A stretch of DNA of 64,000 nucleotides from Thermodesulfobacteriota bacterium (GTDB lineage: Bacteria > Desulfobacterota_D > UBA1144 > Nemesobacterales > JAJCZQ01): assembly GCA_965203965.1 (NCBI GenBank), contig CBDBDR010000017.1:1-64000 (forward strand), in the 5' to 3' direction. Both the position numbers and the translations under genes were made by a program. The stretch's first letter is position 1, and each line of letters starts with the position of its first letter. The notes under the pieces are model-generated. The model made no database searches. It was not told the DNA's origin and worked only from the letters and a program-made list of their open reading frames with translations. Positions 19,099-33,170 of this stretch are shown one piece after another.

Positions 19099-19950
19099 TC
19101 ATTTATAAATATCTCTATGTTTTACCAAAAGCTCAGATTCATTGAGACCTTTTGCCAACTCATTCGCAACTGCAACGGATCTGTGTTTACCTCCGGTACA
19201 TCCAATTGCTAGGTTCAGATAAGATTTACCTTCTTTTTTATATCTTGGAATTAAAAAGATAAGCAAATCTGATATTTTTGCAATAAATTCCATTGATTCT
19301 ACGTTTGATATTACAAACTCCCTGATTTTCGGGTCGTTGCCATCTAACTCCTTCAAAGAATCAACAAAGTAAGGATTGGGTAAAAACCTCGCATCCAAAA
19401 CTATATCGGCATCTATCGGGTAACCGTGTTTGAAACCAAAAGATATAATATTCAGCAACATCCTGTGCGGATTTTCATTGGTGAATATGTTGTTGATACG
19501 ATCGCGTAGTTCATGGACGTTATAATCGGAAGTATCTACAATATGGTCGGAGAGGTTTCTGACGTTCTCAAGTACTTTCCTTTCTTTTTCTACATTTTCA
19601 AGAATATCACCGTCTTTTGATAGAGGGTGCCTTCTTCTTGTTTCCTTATATCTTTTAATCAAAACCTCATTTTTTGATTCAAGGAACAGCATATTGACTT
19701 TTTTAACCCTTTTTTTGATCAGAGCAATAAATTCGGCAAAGTTATTTAACGTCTCGATCTCTTTGATCCTAATGTCAATTACCACTGCTATTTTTGTGAA
19801 ATTCGTTTCAGATTTTTTACAGAGATCTATGAATTCGGTTATTATAGAAGTGGGAAGATTATCAATGCAAAAATAGCCAATATCTTCCAGAAATTTTATT
19901 GCAGTGCTTTTGCCTGATCCTGACAGTCCGCTTAGAATAACTATTTCCAT
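19099..19950 (-). CDS. rapZ: RNase adapter RapZ
   Basis: SGLSGSGKS, CIDNLP, TRRRHPL, SFGFKHG, RFLPNP, GCTGGKHRSV. Confidence 0.97.
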   Translation of the reverse strand: MEIVILSGLSGSGKSTAIKFLEDIGYFCIDNLPTSIITEFIDLCKKSETNFTKIAVVIDIRIKEIETLNNFAEFIALIKKRVKKVNMLFLESKNEVLIKRYKETRRRHPLSKDGDILENVEKERKVLENVRNLSDHIVDTSDYNVHELRDRINNIFTNENPHRMLLNIISFGFKHGYPIDADIVLDARFLPNPYFVDSLKELDGNDPKIREFVISNVESMEFIAKISDLLIFLIPRYKKEGKSYLNLAIGCTGGKHRSVAVANELAKGLNESELLVKHRDIYK

Positions 19951-25486: not shown

Positions 25487-25669
25487 ATTTCAGTAGAGAG
25501 GTTTTTGGTTATACTGGTGAAACACAGTTGGTCGGATTATTTACATTTCAAAATATCTGAATTTCAGTAGAGAGGTTTTTGGTTATACTGGTGAAACTTT
25601 TTGCAGCTAAGGTAATTGATAAGCCAGAGAAGATTTCAGTAGAGAGGTTTTTGGTTATACTGGTGAAAC
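25487..25669 (+). CRISPR. CRISPR array: 3 identical 37-bp repeats, 2 spacers (37 and 35 bp)
   Basis: ATTTCAGTAGAGAGGTTTTTGGTTATACTGGTGAAAC at 25487-25523, 25561-25597, 25633-25669; strand inferred from tracrRNA complementarity. Confidence 0.97.
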
Positions 25670-25676
25670 CCCTCTC

Positions 25677-25711
25677 TCCCAAGCCCTTATTACAGGAGCT
25701 TGGGATGTTTT
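25677..25711 (+). terminator. Hairpin plus T-tract after the last repeat (candidate pre-crRNA terminator or leader element)
   Basis: TCCCAAGC (25677-84) / GCTTGGGA (25698-705) followed by TGTTTT. Confidence 0.55.
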
Positions 25712-25762
25712 TGGAAAACAAGTTTTTCGTAAAAGGCACTTTTGCATTAAAAGACAATGATT

Positions 25763-25790
25763 TTGCGAAAAATGATTTTTGTGCTAAACT
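25763..25790 (+). promoter_or_regulatory. Putative sigma70 promoter of tracrRNA
   Basis: TTGCGA-16 bp-TAAACT with extended -10 TG; predicted start lies just before the anti-repeat. Confidence 0.55.
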
Positions 25791-25796
25791 TCACTG

Positions 25797-25930
25797 CAAC
25801 CAGTATAACTGATTACTTATTCTCTGTAATCATCTAAAAGCATGTTGAACGGACCTCTGCTTAGCACGTCTGCTCTCTTTATTAAGTAGAGACAAAGAGG
25901 AACTGCCTTCGGGCGGTTCCTTTGTTCTTT
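25797..25930 (+). ncRNA. tracrRNA (type II-B)
   Basis: Anti-repeat 25799-25830 pairs ungapped with repeat positions 1-32 (26/32 counting G-U); scaffold CTCTGTAATCATCTAAAAGCATGTTGAACGGACCTCTG...CACGTCTG closely resembles the F. novicida tracrRNA as recalled. Confidence 0.9.
25899..25930 (+). terminator. Intrinsic terminator of tracrRNA, convergent with the cas4 stop
   Basis: GGAACTGCC-TTCG-GGCGGTTCC followed by TTTGTTCTTT. Confidence 0.85.
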
Positions 25931-26504
25931 ATAGACGGTCATTGCATAAATTGACATATTCACAAGCACAGCATTGAGCGACAGTTGCACTTGTTTCTGG
26001 TTTTAGCCCACTTTGCAGAATTTTTCTTATTTGGTTGGCTACGTCCATCACGGACGCGCGTTTTTCCGAGTCAATGTAAATTGTATGTAAAACTTTTCCT
26101 TTGCCAACTAAGAATCCAACCGGGCTGGGTTTAGAGAAATATTTTTCCAAAAGCATTGCGTAAGCTACAAGTTGTAATTGGTCACCGCGTCTTTGATTGT
26201 TGGCGGAGAGTTTAAATTCTATAGCATGAACTGCCTCATCAGTCTCTATTGCCATATCAACAATGCCGTGAAGTTCAAGCTCATCATCTTTTATCACCAA
26301 GTTGTGATGGGTTTCTCCATTTTTCAGATTAAATCTAGATAGATTTCGGCGCCGCCATAATTTTTCTTCACGCTGATGAAAATCTTCGCCTTGTTTTATC
26401 CAAGTCGGATATTCAATCTTGAAATCTGTTAATTCAAAGTAATAAACTTTTCTTGGGCAATAACACCACTGGCGAATTAAATTAACAGGAATACTATATG
26501 ACAT
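25929..26504 (-). CDS. cas4: CRISPR-associated exonuclease Cas4
   Basis: YCPR, GIVD...IEFK, QLVAY, C..CEY..LC. Confidence 0.95.
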   Translation of the reverse strand: MSYSIPVNLIRQWCYCPRKVYYFELTDFKIEYPTWIKQGEDFHQREEKLWRRRNLSRFNLKNGETHHNLVIKDDELELHGIVDMAIETDEAVHAIEFKLSANNQRRGDQLQLVAYAMLLEKYFSKPSPVGFLVGKGKVLHTIYIDSEKRASVMDVANQIRKILQSGLKPETSATVAQCCACEYVNLCNDRL

Positions 26505-26796
26505 AATTTTCTTCCCAATCTCTAAAGTCTTCTTTTTGATGTCCTATAAAATAACTCTGACCTCGTCCGTTGAAGTTTGTATGTGTAATAAATGCCTTGT
26601 CTATTTTTTCCAAACTGTTTTTCAAGTAACGTTTAACCGCCTCCAGTTCAGCCAGAGTCAGGTAGCCCCAAAAAACCGATTTTTGCACGGACCTTAGTCC
26701 GTATTTGCCTAGTTCTTTGAAGATACGGGTGCGTATTTTGTTATCTTCCACGTCGTAACTAATCAGATATTCCTGCCTTAACGGATAGTTTTTCAT
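26494..26796 (-). CDS. cas2: CRISPR-associated Cas2
   Basis: YLISYDVEDNKIR, VQKSVF. Confidence 0.96.
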   Translation of the reverse strand: MKNYPLRQEYLISYDVEDNKIRTRIFKELGKYGLRSVQKSVFWGYLTLAELEAVKRYLKNSLEKIDKAFITHTNFNGRGQSYFIGHQKEDFRDWEENYVI

Positions 26797-26805
26797 ATTA
26801 ACGGA

Positions 26806-27762
26806 TTACCACTTGAACAAGTATGGCTTGTATGTCTTTTCACCGTAAAAGTGACCGCATAAACGATAAATCTGTCTCTGAATAATGTATTCCAACTTAT
26901 GCTTTTTCCCTCTGTAAAAGTATCTTTTGGCGCATGTTTTTTGGATCTCATCAATAAGTGTTTTTTTCAACTCCATGCCCAGTGTTGTCTTCCCTTCACT
27001 TTGAGAGCGTAGTTTTATTACGGCACGGTCAACTACCCATGCGCGATACTCTTCCATTATATCAAGTACAAGTGCCATTTTACCCGGACGGGTCGCGTGC
27101 ATAATGCCGAGATACGGCTCAAGTCCTGCATTTATAATGGCATTCAGTATATAACTGCTTAATACCGAATACCCGAGATTGAGCATTGAATTGTTAATTT
27201 CTTGGCTTCCTCTGCCTTCACGTTTTTTAAATGAGGATGAAAATAATTGTGCCTGACGTAAACTTTGAAAATAAATGTTTGCACTTATCCCCTCAAAGCC
27301 CAGCAACGTTTCAATATCCCTTGCATGCCCCGCTTCAAAGATGTTTTTCAATAACTCATCCGCTGCAAGTTGTATTGACGGGTGCTGATGATATTTGCCA
27401 AGGTAATTTAATACGGCGCGTTGATTTTTGATTTTAGCGGAGACAATTTTCCTCGCAAGTGGTAGGGTATCGTTCTGACAAAAACCCATTTGTGCCATTC
27501 TGACGGCCACAACGCCGTGTTGTGATTGTCCAACGATTGTAGAGTGCTGAACACCGCGAAAATCAAGAAAGAATAACTTGATGCCCCGTGCGCTCAAGGA
27601 TTCTACTAAGTCACTGGAAAAACTGACTCCTCGTTTGGCTATGGAAATGGTACATAGGCGGTTAAGCGGGAAATAGCGAGTTTCGCCATTCTGTTTTACT
27701 GCCAGACGATGGCTGTCAAGACCCAAAAATGAGCCATAGTCACTAATAACCAGATGCTTCAC
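26806..27762 (-). CDS. cas1: CRISPR-associated integrase Cas1
   Basis: KIKNQ, LGFEG..A..YF, NSMLNLGY, GLEPYLGIMH, LDIMEEYR. Confidence 0.97.
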   Translation of the reverse strand: MKHLVISDYGSFLGLDSHRLAVKQNGETRYFPLNRLCTISIAKRGVSFSSDLVESLSARGIKLFFLDFRGVQHSTIVGQSQHGVVAVRMAQMGFCQNDTLPLARKIVSAKIKNQRAVLNYLGKYHQHPSIQLAADELLKNIFEAGHARDIETLLGFEGISANIYFQSLRQAQLFSSSFKKREGRGSQEINNSMLNLGYSVLSSYILNAIINAGLEPYLGIMHATRPGKMALVLDIMEEYRAWVVDRAVIKLRSQSEGKTTLGMELKKTLIDEIQKTCAKRYFYRGKKHKLEYIIQRQIYRLCGHFYGEKTYKPYLFKW

Positions 27763-28028
27763 TATGTGGTTTTTACCTTAAGCGGAAATCTGCCGGGATT
27801 CTTGATAATTTCTTTTGTTAGATCAATATCAATAGCCAGCCAGTGATAGTGATTCTGGGATAATTGCTCCACGTTCAGTATTGCTTCGACGGTTTGACCC
27901 TTGAACCAAAGGAAGTATTCATAAGACATGAAAAACTCTTCGTCTTGCGCAAACAGCCATATTCCATGCGTGGATATATGCGTAATTTCAACTGCCGAAG
28001 TTTTATTGCCAAGCGTTGCTAAACTCAT
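27762..28028 (-). CDS. DUF2442-family protein
   Basis: VEITHISTHGIWL, FMSYEYF.WF, HW..IDIDL....I..P.RFPL; stop overlaps the cas1 GTG. Confidence 0.8.
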   Translation of the reverse strand: MSLATLGNKTSAVEITHISTHGIWLFAQDEEFFMSYEYFLWFKGQTVEAILNVEQLSQNHYHWLAIDIDLTKEIIKNPGRFPLKVKTT

Positions 28029-28062: not shown

Positions 28063-28158
28063 TCAGGTAATAGCAAATTTTAACGTTCCTTTTACTACTA
28101 TGCTATTGTTGTCCAGTCCAAGAAGTGAACCATAGTCATCTACGACAAGATGTCTCAC
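28063..28158 (-). pseudogene. cas1: Truncated second cas1 (N-terminal 23 aa plus short tail)
   Basis: GTG overlaps the cas9 TGA; MRHLVVDDYGSLLGLDNNSIVVK is 14/23 identical to the intact Cas1 N-terminus. Confidence 0.85.
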
Positions 28159-31100
28159 TCCAGCTGATCAACTAACTTTGCAGTTTTGAATGCCTTTTTC
28201 ATTTCTTTTTTATAAGATGCCCCTTTGTAGCAAATTATAGCCCCTCGCTTCTTTTGTTTTATTTGATCTTCAAAAAACTCATCACGAATCTTTTGAGGAG
28301 ATTTTTCAGATTGTTCTGCTGTATTTTTTGTTGCTTTCTTTGCTGGCTTTTTTCTAAAACCATGTTGGCATATCGGGTCTTCCATAAACTCGGCATCTTT
28401 TATTTCTTTGCCGTCTTTTGCCAATTTTATTGCTATACTTGGAGCAGTAGAGTTATCTATTTGATACCAGAGCTGATCGATTTGAACTGGTAGCGTGAAT
28501 TTATCTTTATCAACCATATACCACTTTTTGGGGTCTATGGCTTCCCCAACTTCATATTTTTCATTTGACTTTAACTTAACAAAATTGTTTGATTTTGCCC
28601 ATGTTGCCAGTTTAACCCCTAGTGAACCGTCTTTTTTTCTTATAGGCACATTCGGTTTATTATCTGGTTTTCTGGAGTCCGAATCATTCATAACTTGATA
28701 GATATAATCTCCAGACCACGACTTCCTTCGCATCATAAGTTTTCCCTCATTGGTTAAAACTGGTAGAGAAAAGACCTTCCTCACTTTTTGATGGTCACCG
28801 TTTGTATGTGACTTGAAATACCAATGCAGAAACTCCTCAAATGTCCATTCTAGTTTTTCTTTTTCTTTCCATTTCTCATTGCAGTTTTCCCACTGTTCTT
28901 TCACAGGCAAATGTATATCTTTATTATAGACTTTCCAAGTGAAGTTTTTCTTTAGCCCTTTGTTTAAGTCGTCAGGCTTAGAAATTGCAAATTTCTCTGT
29001 TTTATAACTTAAAATCTTATAGACAAATGAGTCACTTTCAAATTGCTTTCCAGTTTTTGTATTGTAATTTTTTGTCCAGTATTCGTGTAGCTTCAATTTA
29101 TTCACTGTCAGATAACAATAAGAACTTTTTTGCAATTGCTTGGCAAAACATTCAATTTTTTTCATTGCAGAAAACAAGTCATTCCAACTGTCGTATTGGT
29201 TGCTTAAAAGGGTTGTATCTTCATTGCACAAAGGGAGCAAATTAACAATATTTTTCAATAGCTTTCTATCTTTCGCTTTGGTGCCTGTTTCTACTGCGGC
29301 ACTGTTCTCCAAGCTAAAACCGATCTTGATGCATATAGAATCATCTTTCTGTTTCATCAAAACAGGGAGATAATGATCAGCATAAAAAGTATCGCGTGTA
29401 AAAGAACGGTGAGATGAAAAGTTTTCATTAGGTTTCCTTCTATCTAGATTTCTTATGTTACACTCGTCATCATGAACTTGAATGCATTCCCATAAACCAT
29501 TAATCTCGCCTGTTTCCTTATCGTAGGGTTCCTTTCTAACAAAATCATCTAATTTAAGTTTTAGTCCACCGTCTTTACGGTGTGCATCTGCAGTAATTAC
29601 AAATGCCAACATTGCATCAATTAAATGCGAGTAGGCTTTTTGTTTTTTATCTTTACTTTTAGCGTATTCAGCCATTTTTGGGTAACATTCTTCATACAGT
29701 TTCCGTAGATCATGAATTCCATCTCCGCGAGAATTGCACTGTGCTTCAACACCAAAATAGTCAAAAGATAGAAGGCTTTCTTTGCCGATACGTTTGGCTT
29801 TTTTATAAAGCTTATTTGCTAACGTTTCTGCAAAATATCGCTGAGTGCCGTTCACTAACGACCTGTTCTTGTTGTTTATTGCGTTGATGACTTTTTCTCT
29901 CAGTGGATGCCCTACAAGAAACAAAGCATGGCGGAAGGCTGTTTGTTGTTCTGGTTCAAGGTTGATGAAACTACGATATTTGCCAAACTTGAAGTCTTCA
30001 CCGGAACCATCTCCAATTTTCTCAATGATCCATTCCTCGATCTCCTTATCATCATTCGTACCGAATTGTTCTTCCTTGTATTTAGGTTTTAATTGCTCTA
30101 GTGAAAATTCATAATTTTGCTTGATCTCTTTATTTCCTTTACCACTTGCCCAGATAAGGTTTGCTTCGTCATTCAAAGTTCCCCATTGTGAAGAACGAGG
30201 AATAATATGATCCTTATCACCCTCTGAAAGTGGATCACCTGTGTAAGGACATATCTTTTTACTATCTTCTTTTATTCTGTCGTTTTTATCTTTTAGTAAA
30301 TCAGAATTCTGATGTTTTTCATCTCTATTAGTTTTTAATATTTTAAGGCTTGGTTCATACTCAAATCTATTGGACTCAGTAATAATTGGAACACAAACTT
30401 TATTACCGTCTGTAAGTTCTTTTTCAATCCTTTCCCATTTATCATCAGCAATAGCGCCGCCGACAATCCGCGCCACACGCATAACAGCACCATCAATAAC
30501 GCGAGTGGAAATTGCGGGCAAACGTTGGGATTTTACTGTTGTGTCTTTCCCGTTCGCCGTGGAAATTATCTGCATGCGGAAAGCATTATCAGCACCACAC
30601 ACAGCACAAGTGCTGGCATTGCCGCTACGTTCCTTAAAGGTGATATTGTTGATCTGTGCGAGTAAATAAACGCCCGTTGCTGGGTTTTTCTCCAGATCCT
30701 TTTCCCATTCTTGTTGTGCTAAATCATCACACAGAGATTTCGTAAGAATTAGGCATAAGTCTTTTGCCCTACTGCAAAAACTATGGAGCTTATACGCATC
30801 ATTCACTGTAGAGTTTTTAAGAATCTTCTTGATGCTTTTATCAGGCCGAGATTCACTCTGTTTTCTGTGATAAATAAGCCCAAATACAGTTTGAATATCC
30901 AATTTGAGTCGTCCCCGGCGTTCTTTCTGCTCTCTGGAAGTTCGGTCACAATTTGCTTTTAATTTATCAATTCTGCTCAGCCAGTTGAACAATCTTTCGT
31001 CTATGGTTCCTCTATTTTGTTTTTCGGCAATGTTCTTCAATTTATGAGATGAAACCTGCAACAATCCTGCCAAATCCTCTAACATCTGGTAACGCTTTTG

Positions 31101-33170
31101 TCGGGGTTTATGATTACAATAAGTCAGCATGTGATCCTTATCATCAAAGCGACCGGTATTTTCATAGCCGCGCCCTTTAACAAAACGATACTCGGGATGA
31201 ATGTAAATCCTGCCGTTTCTGGCGCGTTGACGCTGCTTGAAGTATTTGCAGATTAAATGTAGAAAAGTGCCATTGGGGAAGAGATCATTTCTGTCATAAT
31301 CTGGCTTGCCTTTCAGTTCATTCGGCAGGTTACTTTTTTTAAGCGACTTTTCCAATTCTTGTTTCGTTTTTTTTACGTTCCTAACAGCATCTTCATCTGT
31401 TTTATTGGCATCCTGCTTAATTTTTTTGGCATGGCTATATATTTCATTGAGCTTTAGTGGGTCTTCGTCTTTAACCCTGTCAAAAATGAATTGCAAAATA
31501 CGGGTATTCAATTCAGCCATACTCCTGCGTCCGGAGTCCGTAAGCAAGTTACCTTTGTGGTCATCGCTAAAATAGTTTTTTCTTTTACCGCTTTTCAGTT
31601 TTTTGAGTTTTTCCCCATAATCACCAAGATAATCTTTAACGGGTTGCAGTTTTTTCAGTTCACTAAGCCAAGTTTGCCAGTTTGGATATTTTTTATTTAG
31701 AAAGCTGACATTCAAAATAAAACTTTGGCATTTGGGTGGACGGCGATTGTTATTATTCTGATAAGGTGGGATGGTCCAGTTGGGATTGGTTTTCAGCCAA
31801 AAATCAACAATCCCTCTGGTTTTTTCTTTTCCCCATTTTTTTCGTAATTTTTTGTAATTGTAATTTCCTCTTTCTGCTTTGTCTTTGTCTTTTTGTGAAT
31901 TGACACGCCACTCGCTCAGTATCCACCTTTCAAAAAACCTGTTAATCCGTTTTTCGTCCCATTGATCACCCTCTTCGTTTGTTCCGTTTATTTTGTGCAT
32001 CTTATGGTTGAAGTATTTGCGGAGTGGTTTTAGTTCTAAATTGCTGATATGTCCTATAAGGTTAGACAAATTTTCAATATTCAATCCCTGAAAACCCCCC
32101 GATTGTAATTGTTCGCAAAATTTTTTCAGATAGCTATGTGTATGATTCTTCCTTTCAAGAACGGTTTTGACTTCTTCAAAATACTTGCTGCGATGGCGTC
32201 CACCCGACTCAAGTTCGCTATAAATTTTGTGAATGGTAAAAGCAAGATGGTGCAGGTGGGTTTGTATGTTTGGACTCTCAGATTCAGAGTCATAAAATTT
32301 AGCATCTTCCATATCAAAGTCTTCGGCATTGAAATTCCAATCTGACTCTTTCAGTTCGTTCTTTTCTTTCAAATCCGGTAAGCTTCCTATAATTTTCTTT
32401 GCTGTTTCAGGTTTTTTCTCATTCAAGTATTTGACCATATCAAATTTGGTTTCCGAAAGATTATTGGGTAAACCATGAATTCCGCTTTCTATCCAATTCT
32501 TCAATACCCATCTGGGCAATTGCGACAAGTTAACTTTTTTCTCTTCAGGAATATTCTCACCTTTTTCGCGTGTTGAACAATATTTACGCAATTTTTCTGT
32601 TTTAGAAATGTAACAAAGCCTTTTACGGATTCTTTGGGGTTCCTGATTGAGGGATTTAAACAAAGGTTTGATTTTGTCTTTCCCTTCATTTGACCACTCA
32701 GTCAAAGCATTGGCAAAATCGTAGTCGTTTTCGCTTTCTGCTATCTCTTGCTTCAATTCTTGCTTCAATTTATCGGGCAGTTTACCAAAGGCCTCCCGAG
32801 GAAACTTGCTCAATATGTCAGTACTATATTGTTCCGTTAAAAAGTTGAACCCGCGGCGATTGAGTAAAAAACTGATGGTTTGTTGGATGTCTTTGTCCCA
32901 AGGCAGTTTGAAATGCTTATACCAAACCAACTTAAACAGCCGCTTTGCCATCTGTCTGCGGTCATACCCACGTTTCTGATGTCGCTTGTCCGTGCGATTA
33001 ACCATCAGGTAGGTGTAACTATTGTTATCCAGTTGATAGACTTTGCCTGTCTTTATTTCCGGCCTCTTGAAAACGTCCAACTCACTCCCCGCAGGATAAT
33101 GAGCAAAATACACGCCGGTGTTTTTGGCGCCGAGGTCAATAGCGATTGGGCTGATGAATTTCTTGTTCAT
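28155..33170 (-). CDS. cas9: Type II-B Cas9 (Francisella/Legionella-like), 1671 aa
   Basis: RuvC-I IAIDLGAKNTG, Arg-rich bridge helix, RuvC-II ITESN, HNH CPYTG...DHIIPRS...NDEANL, RuvC-III SHLIDA; cas4 present in locus. Confidence 0.97.
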   Translation of the reverse strand: MNKKFISPIAIDLGAKNTGVYFAHYPAGSELDVFKRPEIKTGKVYQLDNNSYTYLMVNRTDKRHQKRGYDRRQMAKRLFKLVWYKHFKLPWDKDIQQTISFLLNRRGFNFLTEQYSTDILSKFPREAFGKLPDKLKQELKQEIAESENDYDFANALTEWSNEGKDKIKPLFKSLNQEPQRIRKRLCYISKTEKLRKYCSTREKGENIPEEKKVNLSQLPRWVLKNWIESGIHGLPNNLSETKFDMVKYLNEKKPETAKKIIGSLPDLKEKNELKESDWNFNAEDFDMEDAKFYDSESESPNIQTHLHHLAFTIHKIYSELESGGRHRSKYFEEVKTVLERKNHTHSYLKKFCEQLQSGGFQGLNIENLSNLIGHISNLELKPLRKYFNHKMHKINGTNEEGDQWDEKRINRFFERWILSEWRVNSQKDKDKAERGNYNYKKLRKKWGKEKTRGIVDFWLKTNPNWTIPPYQNNNNRRPPKCQSFILNVSFLNKKYPNWQTWLSELKKLQPVKDYLGDYGEKLKKLKSGKRKNYFSDDHKGNLLTDSGRRSMAELNTRILQFIFDRVKDEDPLKLNEIYSHAKKIKQDANKTDEDAVRNVKKTKQELEKSLKKSNLPNELKGKPDYDRNDLFPNGTFLHLICKYFKQRQRARNGRIYIHPEYRFVKGRGYENTGRFDDKDHMLTYCNHKPRQKRYQMLEDLAGLLQVSSHKLKNIAEKQNRGTIDERLFNWLSRIDKLKANCDRTSREQKERRGRLKLDIQTVFGLIYHRKQSESRPDKSIKKILKNSTVNDAYKLHSFCSRAKDLCLILTKSLCDDLAQQEWEKDLEKNPATGVYLLAQINNITFKERSGNASTCAVCGADNAFRMQIISTANGKDTTVKSQRLPAISTRVIDGAVMRVARIVGGAIADDKWERIEKELTDGNKVCVPIITESNRFEYEPSLKILKTNRDEKHQNSDLLKDKNDRIKEDSKKICPYTGDPLSEGDKDHIIPRSSQWGTLNDEANLIWASGKGNKEIKQNYEFSLEQLKPKYKEEQFGTNDDKEIEEWIIEKIGDGSGEDFKFGKYRSFINLEPEQQTAFRHALFLVGHPLREKVINAINNKNRSLVNGTQRYFAETLANKLYKKAKRIGKESLLSFDYFGVEAQCNSRGDGIHDLRKLYEECYPKMAEYAKSKDKKQKAYSHLIDAMLAFVITADAHRKDGGLKLKLDDFVRKEPYDKETGEINGLWECIQVHDDECNIRNLDRRKPNENFSSHRSFTRDTFYADHYLPVLMKQKDDSICIKIGFSLENSAAVETGTKAKDRKLLKNIVNLLPLCNEDTTLLSNQYDSWNDLFSAMKKIECFAKQLQKSSYCYLTVNKLKLHEYWTKNYNTKTGKQFESDSFVYKILSYKTEKFAISKPDDLNKGLKKNFTWKVYNKDIHLPVKEQWENCNEKWKEKEKLEWTFEEFLHWYFKSHTNGDHQKVRKVFSLPVLTNEGKLMMRRKSWSGDYIYQVMNDSDSRKPDNKPNVPIRKKDGSLGVKLATWAKSNNFVKLKSNEKYEVGEAIDPKKWYMVDKDKFTLPVQIDQLWYQIDNSTAPSIAIKLAKDGKEIKDAEFMEDPICQHGFRKKPAKKATKNTAEQSEKSPQKIRDEFFEDQIKQKKRGAIICYKGASYKKEMKKAFKTAKLVDQLE

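Follow-up and report, generated by a model that had tools for sequence, protein, structure and literature searches.

The window, the 64,000-nucleotide stretch at positions 1 to 64,000 of contig CBDBDR010000017.1 from a Thermodesulfobacteriota bacterium, carries a cas9 gene whose predicted product departs from Francisella novicida Cas9 (FnCas9) at both residues that read the protospacer adjacent motif (PAM). The columns of the two FnCas9 arginines are occupied by Ala1576 and Gly1604. These losses belong to a coupled rebuild of the PAM-interacting (PI) domain that runs through a whole clade of Cas9 proteins and are not a private mutation. The gene probably encodes a working type II-B Cas9 with a distinct and conserved PI domain, as judged from its sequence and that of its relatives. 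Protospacer flanks from the lineage of a relative argue, on a thin set of matches, against a strict NGG PAM and for a retained G at the second position.

Alignment of the PI domain with FnCas9

According to PMC11213958 and PMC12231574, G2 of the NGG PAM is recognized in FnCas9 by R1585 and G3 by R1556, the substitutions R1556A, R1556Q and R1556T abolish activity, and the engineered RHA variant (E1369R/E1449H/R1556A) recognizes YG; in PMC11213958, RHA FnCas9 is reported to be poorly active. The window features that correspond to these residues are the following.

28155..33170, minus strand: cas9, type II-B (Csx12), 1671 amino acids in a single open reading frame, assigned with TIGR03031, Pfam PF21069 and phmmer
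28290..28466, minus strand: PI stretch, residues 1569-1627, with the T-A-P strand, the C-Q-H-G-F-R-K motif and the Lys-rich insert
28443..28445, minus strand: Ala1576 codon, in the column of FnCas9 R1556 (G3 reader) by HMMER alignment
28431..28433, minus strand: Ala1580 codon, aligned by phmmer with the second Arg (R1560) in the FnCas9 strand RPKVRVKL
28353..28364, minus strand: codons of His1603-Gly1604-Phe1605-Arg1606, with G1604 in the FnCas9 R1585 column (G2 reader) and R1606 a candidate replacement reader
28359..28361, minus strand: Gly1604 codon, in the column of FnCas9 R1585
28995..28997, minus strand: Glu1392 codon, in the FnCas9 E1369 column by alignment, and not the Arg of RHA
28746..28748, minus strand: Glu1475 codon, in the FnCas9 E1449 column, and not the His of RHA (window LTNEGK; wild-type TNEGK; RHA TNHGK)

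Every feature tested places the protein in the type II-B Cas9 family, the assignment made in an earlier note on this DNA. The TIGR03031 equivalog model for Cas9/Csx12 is matched at 594.8 bits, above its cut-off of 399.4, and Pfam PF21069 is matched with an E-value of 2.7e-117. Residues 4-1584 align by phmmer with the FnCas9 chains 9ehf and 5b2o at E=0 and about 1104 bits, and H988 falls on the FnCas9 HNH histidine, residue 969 of the native protein and 968 of the chain. Across 23 II-B Cas9 proteins there is no variation at E932, D987, H988, N1013, H1182 or D1185, and almost none at D12. The assignment of these residues to the RuvC and HNH sites follows the catalytic residues of FnCas9. The host assembly is 1.99 Mb long and 99.5% complete.

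The translation of 28155-33170 contains YQIDNSTAPSIAIKL from residue 1569 and FMEDPICQHGF from residue 1595, the latter followed by the Lys-rich RKKPAKKATKNTAEQSEKSPQK. These are the peptides quoted in the earlier note, and the codon positions it gave for A1576 and G1604 are correct. Its manual pairing of A1576 with R1556 and of G1604 with R1585 is upheld as well, the first by phmmer and the second by profile and MAFFT alignment. A phmmer search of the PDB with the C-terminal 272 residues lays YQIDNSTAPSIAIKLA over FnCas9 YKIDNNSRPKVRVKLD and ends at FnCas9 residue 1564; this register puts A1576 in the R1556 column, where the RHA crystal chain 5b2q also has Ala. The single-sequence alignment thus stops before R1585, and a profile of 18 PI domains (alignment A2) extends to FnCas9 residue 1616. 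The profile sets FnCas9 SLLKSRYPDK against SLLKPGFRKK, which equates G1604 with R1585, F1605 with Y1586 and R1606 with P1587, and two MAFFT alignments have the same register around R1585. By alignment, then, the window Cas9 is without the FnCas9-type arginine pair: Arg at both sites, the outcome named in the earlier note as contradicting it, was not seen, and Ala and Gly were found instead. The likeness to RHA is confined to the Ala in the R1556 column. Counterparts of E1369R and E1449H are absent, with E1392 and E1475 in their place, and most clade members have Gln in the 1475 column.

An AlphaFold2 model of residues 1242-1671, computed with alignment A2, has a mean predicted local distance difference test score (pLDDT) of 85.6 and a predicted template modeling score of 0.76. 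The insert (1606-1627) is modeled with a pLDDT of ~78-87, and a helix spans residues ~1625-1637. Foldseek comparison of the model returns the FnCas9 chains first (E 5e-24, TMq ~0.6) and Parasutterella secunda Cas9 (PsCas9) next (E ~1e-11 to 1e-12).

The rebuilt PI domain is shared across a clade

A word-indexed search with residues 1380-1671 returned 30 proteins, and a scan of species-representative genomes gave 39 loci, nearly all in metagenome-assembled genomes (MAGs) titled sponge-type or marine symbionts and drawn from many phyla. Fifty-seven near-full-length sequences were aligned. Outside this set stand P0002, which has an identical C-terminal region, P0005 and P0019, which are partial or truncated, four locus-duplicated proteins, and loci with frames shorter than 1400 amino acids. 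T-A-P is carried by 18 of the 57 aligned Cas9 proteins, mostly from sponge-type symbiont MAGs. In all 18, T1575, A1576, P1577, A1580, C1601, H1603, G1604 and R1606 are invariant, and this invariance across the clade shows that the pattern is not due to chance. K1607, K1612, K1623 and R1629 are each present in 16 of the 18, and E1631, F1632 and F1633 each in 17. Two further basic residues are specific to the clade, R1511 (18/18) and K1532 (17/18).

The clade form of the R1556 strand is T-A-P-x-x-A, with two arginines lost; the Fn-like group has Arg in both the 1576 and the 1580 columns (10/10). The R1585 strand takes the form C-x-H-G-[F/L]-R-[K/R] and is followed by a Lys-rich insert of ~20 residues and a conserved helix. 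The description of the enzyme as naturally R1556A-like therefore captures the Ala in the R1556 column and misses the rest, since the change is not a lone one: A1580, the C-x-H-G-x-R motif and the basic insert accompany it throughout the clade.

A profile search run exhaustively over 1.84 billion representatives found 175 proteins at E <= 0.001. Together with the earlier matches these gave 192 aligned rows, with some redundancy, and 101 rows cover both sites. Column 1576 holds Arg in 60 of these PI domains, Ala in 27 and another residue in 14. The H-G-x-R motif occurs in 22 of the 27 Ala rows and in none of the 60 Arg rows or the 14 others (Fisher p 3.6e-16, a value not corrected for shared ancestry). 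The closest Arg-type relatives have the same Cys...Phe frame and read CRGRFD or CKRRFD, in which column 1604 is Arg and column 1606 is Asp. On that frame the Ala types read C-[Q/K]-H-G-F-R, with Gly at 1604 and Arg at 1606. In effect, the arginine has shifted two positions along between the Arg type and the Ala type.

Guide RNA orientation and protospacer flanks

The side of the protospacer on which the PAM is sought was set with the CRISPR array and the trans-activating CRISPR RNA (tracrRNA) of the window.

25487..25669, plus strand: CRISPR array, with two spacers (25524-25560 and 25598-25632) between three 37-nt repeats, transcript sense that of the plus strand
25797..25932, plus strand: tracrRNA, antisense to the cas genes, start approximate, with a 5' anti-repeat, a conserved core and a 3' terminator hairpin with a T-run

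A terminator scan places a terminator-like stem-loop at 25896-25923 on the plus strand. In an alignment of the cas4-to-array block from 10 loci the core is highly conserved and the terminator stem has compensatory changes. The repeat:anti-repeat duplex has an energy of -28.5 kcal/mol in the plus sense versus -18.7 kcal/mol in the opposite sense, and the plus sense is favored in 9/9 loci. Since the tracrRNA lies on the plus strand, the array is read on that strand and the PAM lies 3' of the protospacers in the plus sense; the same strand evidence rules out a reading of the array in the direction of the cas genes. We take the core to resemble the FnCas9 tracrRNA scaffold. An Rfam search matched no family to the window tracrRNA.

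No protospacer was found for the window's own two spacers, whose flanks were the check suggested in the earlier note. BLAST against the 1.99-Mb genome and the loci of relatives returned the array itself only, an exact scan of viral contigs gave no match, a scan of metagenome contigs with one of the spacers gave none, and the array had no blastn hit in the phage or the plasmid collection. A comparison of all 856 spacers from 32 arrays with the window's own genome and the loci yielded only within-array duplicates and chance matches of at most 22 nt. When clade arrays were compared with their own and each other's genomes and with 126 genomes of one order, only two imperfect matches to a prophage of genome G003 were usable. 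The other clade-array matches were rejected as array-to-array matches, orphan repeats (G038), low-complexity sequence or AT-rich noise, and a spacer scan with a loose threshold yielded noise alone. The scored matches at G038:C1:889922-895708 are isolated copies of the II-B repeat only, and degenerate or orphan II-B repeat copies lie past the array ends in loci L002, L003, L007 and L008.

The two usable matches belong to L005, the locus of a clade relative whose PI region is 60% identical to that of the window Cas9, with the motifs DATAPTIA and CKHGFRK and an array of 71 spacers. Spacer 3 of this array matches a tape-measure gene (Pfam TMP_3) in its own genome at 32/36 positions, and spacer 66 matches a DUF5675 gene, present in two copies, at 29/36. 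Both targets are in one prophage, ~20 kb apart. The prophage is present in four sponge-metagenome runs. Contigs from these runs, aligned to the prophage, contain the exact L005-type repeat joined directly to prophage sequence, and these junctions identify spacers of population arrays that match the prophage perfectly. The matches listed in the runs include at least three perfect protospacers, which are given below on L059 (G003:C1:1084501-1104450) with the two imperfect ones.

L059 from 4503, minus strand: perfect protospacer, PAM-side flank CGACAT
L059 from 16916, minus strand: perfect protospacer, PAM-side flank CGGCGT
L059 7105-7140, plus strand: perfect protospacer with the repeat on both sides, PAM-side flank AGACCG
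L005 spacer 3: match of 32/36, PAM-side flank CGAGGA
L005 spacer 66: match of 29/36, PAM-side flank TGAGGA in the prophage, whereas a variant contig that resembles the spacer more closely has CGAGGA

Among the matches listed, +2 is G in 5/5 flanks, for which the chance is 0.0014 at a pre-named position with the composition of the prophage, and 0.019 for the three perfect matches alone. Position +3 is A in four flanks and G in one (chance 0.012). Four flanks have C or T at +1, and the fifth has A. On the other side of the protospacer, where the end is defined for two of the matches, none of the first three positions has the same base in both. In terms of the FnCas9 PAM, 1/5 flanks of the L005 lineage is NGG and 4/5 are NGA (n=5); in terms of the YG of RHA, the flanks start with CG, CG, AG, CG and C/TG (n=5). 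L005 thus seems to accept NGA as well. The five flanks, read in the guide RNA orientation set above, come from the relative's lineage, and from them we infer the PAM of the window enzyme. The relaxed or non-NGG PAM put forward in the earlier note agrees with this result, a PAM other than strict NGG being the likeliest in view of A at +3 in 4/5 flanks of a same-motif relative (n=5, two of them imperfect).

Further searches around this target came back empty. The L005 array had no match in the phage collection, the tape-measure protein of the targeted prophage had no relative among the viral contigs, three leader-side spacers of L005 and L006 were not found in the viral contigs, and a repeat-based scan of metagenome contigs for further arrays returned none. 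Prophages related to the target within the same order are 65-77% identical, which is too distant for spacer matching.

Several observations concern the prophage and its spacers in their own right. A stretch of 8.6 kb of the prophage occurs twice in the same chromosome with 100% identity (G003:C1:7854-16488 and 1084501-1093135). One spacer kept in the L005 array differs from the tape-measure gene of the resident prophage at four positions, and two of these lie no more than 11 nt from the PAM end. In run X2, pieces of the prophage at L059 places 460, 5267 and 19499-19528, the last of them a 30-nt spacer, are flanked by another CRISPR repeat, which is 36 nt long and unrelated to the first; the same phage is therefore also a target of another CRISPR system in the community. 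Two neighboring spacers of a SUP05-type II-B array (L027 8711-8815) overlap with a 4-nt shift and 30 shared bases, and in principle such an overlap lets a few bases next to one protospacer be read for that different PI type.

A proposed mode of PAM reading and its alternatives

In the mechanism that we favor, G at PAM position +2 would still be read, most likely by the invariant Arg1606 and possibly with the help of His1603. R1606 is a plausible replacement base reader: it does not vary in the clade, and its distance of two residues from 1604 would set it on the same face of an extended strand. Of the two residues offered for this role in the earlier note, R1606 is thus a credible candidate on grounds of invariance and spacing, and H1603 is only a possible helper. 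The G at +2 in 5/5 flanks suggests that the G2 reader probably persists, so the claim that the enzyme lacks both PAM-reading arginines is correct for the alignment and probably not for the function. With Ala at both 1576 and 1580, +3 would no longer be read as G, and A would be accepted or preferred, giving a PAM of approximately 5'-NGA, NGR or NG. The Lys-rich insert might offset the lost arginine-guanine contact through non-specific contacts with the DNA backbone, which would follow the logic of E1369R/E1449H in RHA with other residues and by a different route. Taken as a whole, this scheme (G2 read, G3 not read, an NGA, NGR or NG PAM rather than strict NGG, and compensation by the insert) is held with moderate confidence. 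It is a more tentative proposal, placed a little below an even chance, that T-A-P, C-x-H-G-x-R and the basic insert make up a natural, clade-wide PAM-reading module that keeps G2, frees +3 and has an NG or NGR PAM on the scaffold of a family reported to be of high fidelity.

A number of points weigh against this scheme. The register of the R1585 loop depends on the profile and on MAFFT, and these methods are not mutually independent. The roles given to R1606, H1603 and the insert are conjecture. The window array has two spacers, neither with a target in the collections searched, and the PAM set is made up of five flanks from one prophage and the lineage of one relative, the L005 Cas9 with its 60% identical PI region. 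Two of the five matches are imperfect, and their flanks are those of a homologue and not of the true target. One perfect protospacer is followed by CGG, so NGG may still be accepted, and the C at +1 (4/5) and the C at +4 (3/5) might belong to the motif. The phylogeny is also divided. In the PI-domain tree the 18 T-A-P Cas9 proteins and three variants, which read TSP, TCP and in one case TRP, form a group with a support of 0.88, whereas N-terminal and full-length trees nest the Fn-like group inside the Ala types and have no Ala-type clade. The conflict may reflect weak resolution or a transfer of PI domains from lineage to lineage, and the Ala type may have arisen once or have spread by PI exchange.

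A mere relocation of guanine reading, in which the PAM would have stayed in essence NGG or G-rich and both guanines would be read by other residues, such as R1606 together with the clade-specific R1511 or K1532, is unlikely. The two basic residues are nearly always present (18/18 and 17/18), G is kept at +2 in 5/5 flanks, and CGG follows one of the three perfect protospacers among the matches listed, all of which such a relocation would accommodate, but A stands at +3 in 4/5 flanks, including two of the three perfect matches, and neither uptake nor retention of spacers flanked by NGA is expected of an enzyme that demands NGG. An equally small probability is given to a longer or different PAM, for example one that is YGAC-like or extends beyond +3 and is partly read by the insert, with G2 and A3 only a part of it. 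The conserved insert of ~20 residues could reach further along the duplex, and the C at +1 in 4/5 flanks and at +4 in 3/5 would fit such a motif; the AGA flank and the variation at +4 to +6 (C C C G G; A G C G G; T T G A A) speak against it, and n=5 is too small for any extra position.

It is very improbable that the Cas9 is without PAM-dependent DNA cleavage, as a decaying enzyme or one repurposed, for instance, for regulation only. Such a state would explain the tiny array of only two spacers in the window, and it agrees with the foreign DUF2442 gene between cas9 and cas1 and with the report in PMC11213958 that R1556A alone abolishes FnCas9 activity. It is countered by a full-length frame of 1671 amino acids with conserved catalytic residues and by the identity of relatives to the window Cas9, which is 54-67% over residues 1380-1671 and comparable to the 46-67% over the whole protein; a PI region conserved like the rest of the protein counts against decay or repurposing. 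Relatives with the same motif, moreover, hold 19-71 spacers, and population arrays target the resident prophage. With their conserved catalytic residues, their long arrays and population spacers that perfectly match the prophage of a clade member, the systems of the clade look live, and retention of G2 with a freed +3 remains the preferred reading.

Organization of the cas operon

The genes 3' of cas9 lie on the same strand in the order DUF2442, cas1, cas2, cas4, and the CRISPR array follows them.

27762..28028, minus strand: DUF2442 gene, 88 amino acids, between cas9 and cas1 (Pfam PF10387, E 1.9e-10)
26806..27762, minus strand: cas1 (Pfam Cas_Cas1, E 9.6e-62)
26494..26796, minus strand: cas2 (Pfam CRISPR_Cas2, E 2.2e-13)
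25929..26504, minus strand: cas4 (Pfam Cas_Cas4, E 2.9e-14)

The DUF2442 gene is the sole additional gene in the cas1/cas2/cas4 operon, and no search aimed at csn2 was made. It appears to be a recent insertion: the distance from cas9 to the array in relatives, ~2.1 kb, is too short to hold it, and the gene was not seen in them. Its stop codon overlaps the cas1 start by one base. A 70-nt direct repeat flanks the gene (27694-27763 and 28090-28159, 70% identical, 396 nt apart) and resembles a duplicated cas9/cas1 junction.

The window array, with its two spacers, compares with arrays of 19-71 spacers in the clade relatives. Its repeats start with A (ATTTCAG...), and those of all relatives start with G (GTTTCAG...). 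Between the array and the tracrRNA, at 25670-25796, short motifs of the TTTTCGCAAA and TTTGCGAAA type are kept across loci; they could mark the tracrRNA promoter or another small RNA. A weak pair resembling -35 and -10 elements is visible by eye just 5' of the tracrRNA start (score 8/12), and a promoter scan called no sigma-70-type promoter for the tracrRNA.

Significance and comparison with characterized Cas9 enzymes

The II-B Cas9 enzymes with a stated PAM in the sources consulted, FnCas9 and PsCas9, use NGG, the latter according to PMC10482872; these enzymes are prized for high specificity, and their PAM and their activity restrict their use. The available text of Gasiunas et al. 2020 (PMC7606464) has one characterized II-B enzyme, Lpn from Legionella. 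A literature search that did not extend to the Lpn PAM in the supplements of PMC7606464 found no description of a II-B Cas9 with Ala at the R1556 site, with this motif, or with a non-NGG PAM. Variation of the PI domain among Cas9 orthologues is expected in itself. The interest of the present case is that a conserved natural design without R1556 occurs in loci whose arrays are long and evidently active, and it offers R1606, H1603 and the basic insert as candidate residues. The clade may supply II-B enzymes with an NGA or NG PAM, which would widen the reach of precise Cas9 proteins. Since R1556 substitutions abolish the activity of FnCas9, the proposed module, if true, would be a natural solution to a problem that engineering has solved in part, and it might be transplantable to FnCas9. 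The practical interest lies in PAM engineering of high-fidelity II-B enzymes, and the sponge-type symbiont genomes hold a large, uncharacterized radiation of II-B Cas9 proteins.

FnCas9 (PDB 5b2o, 9ehf) and the window Cas9 belong to the same family and have the same architecture and WED-PI fold. Both loci have cas1, cas2 and cas4, repeats of 37 nt and a tracrRNA whose core is conserved, and both proteins keep Glu in the E1369 and E1449 columns. They differ at R1556, at R1585 and at the second Arg of the strand, where the window Cas9 has Ala, Gly and Ala. The window clade has the invariant C-x-H-G-x-R, the basic insert of ~20 residues and the conserved helix, none of which FnCas9 has, and the protospacer flanks of the window Cas9's relative are mostly NGA and not NGG. 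PsCas9 (PDB 8umf, 9ko9; NGG) is likewise a type II-B enzyme with cas4 and a recognizably related PI fold, but it is far more distant, with a phmmer E-value of 1e-52 and chains of ~1435-1462 amino acids.

The engineered RHA FnCas9 (PDB 5b2q) has Ala in the R1556 column in common with the window Cas9. Of the relative's five flanks, too few for a decision on YG, four start with a pyrimidine and G. The window Cas9, in contrast, has neither of the compensating substitutions (E1392 and E1475 stand at these columns) and is also without R1585; any compensation in it would have to rest on other changes, of natural origin. PMC11213958 reports RHA to be weak, whereas the design found in the window is conserved in a clade with long arrays.

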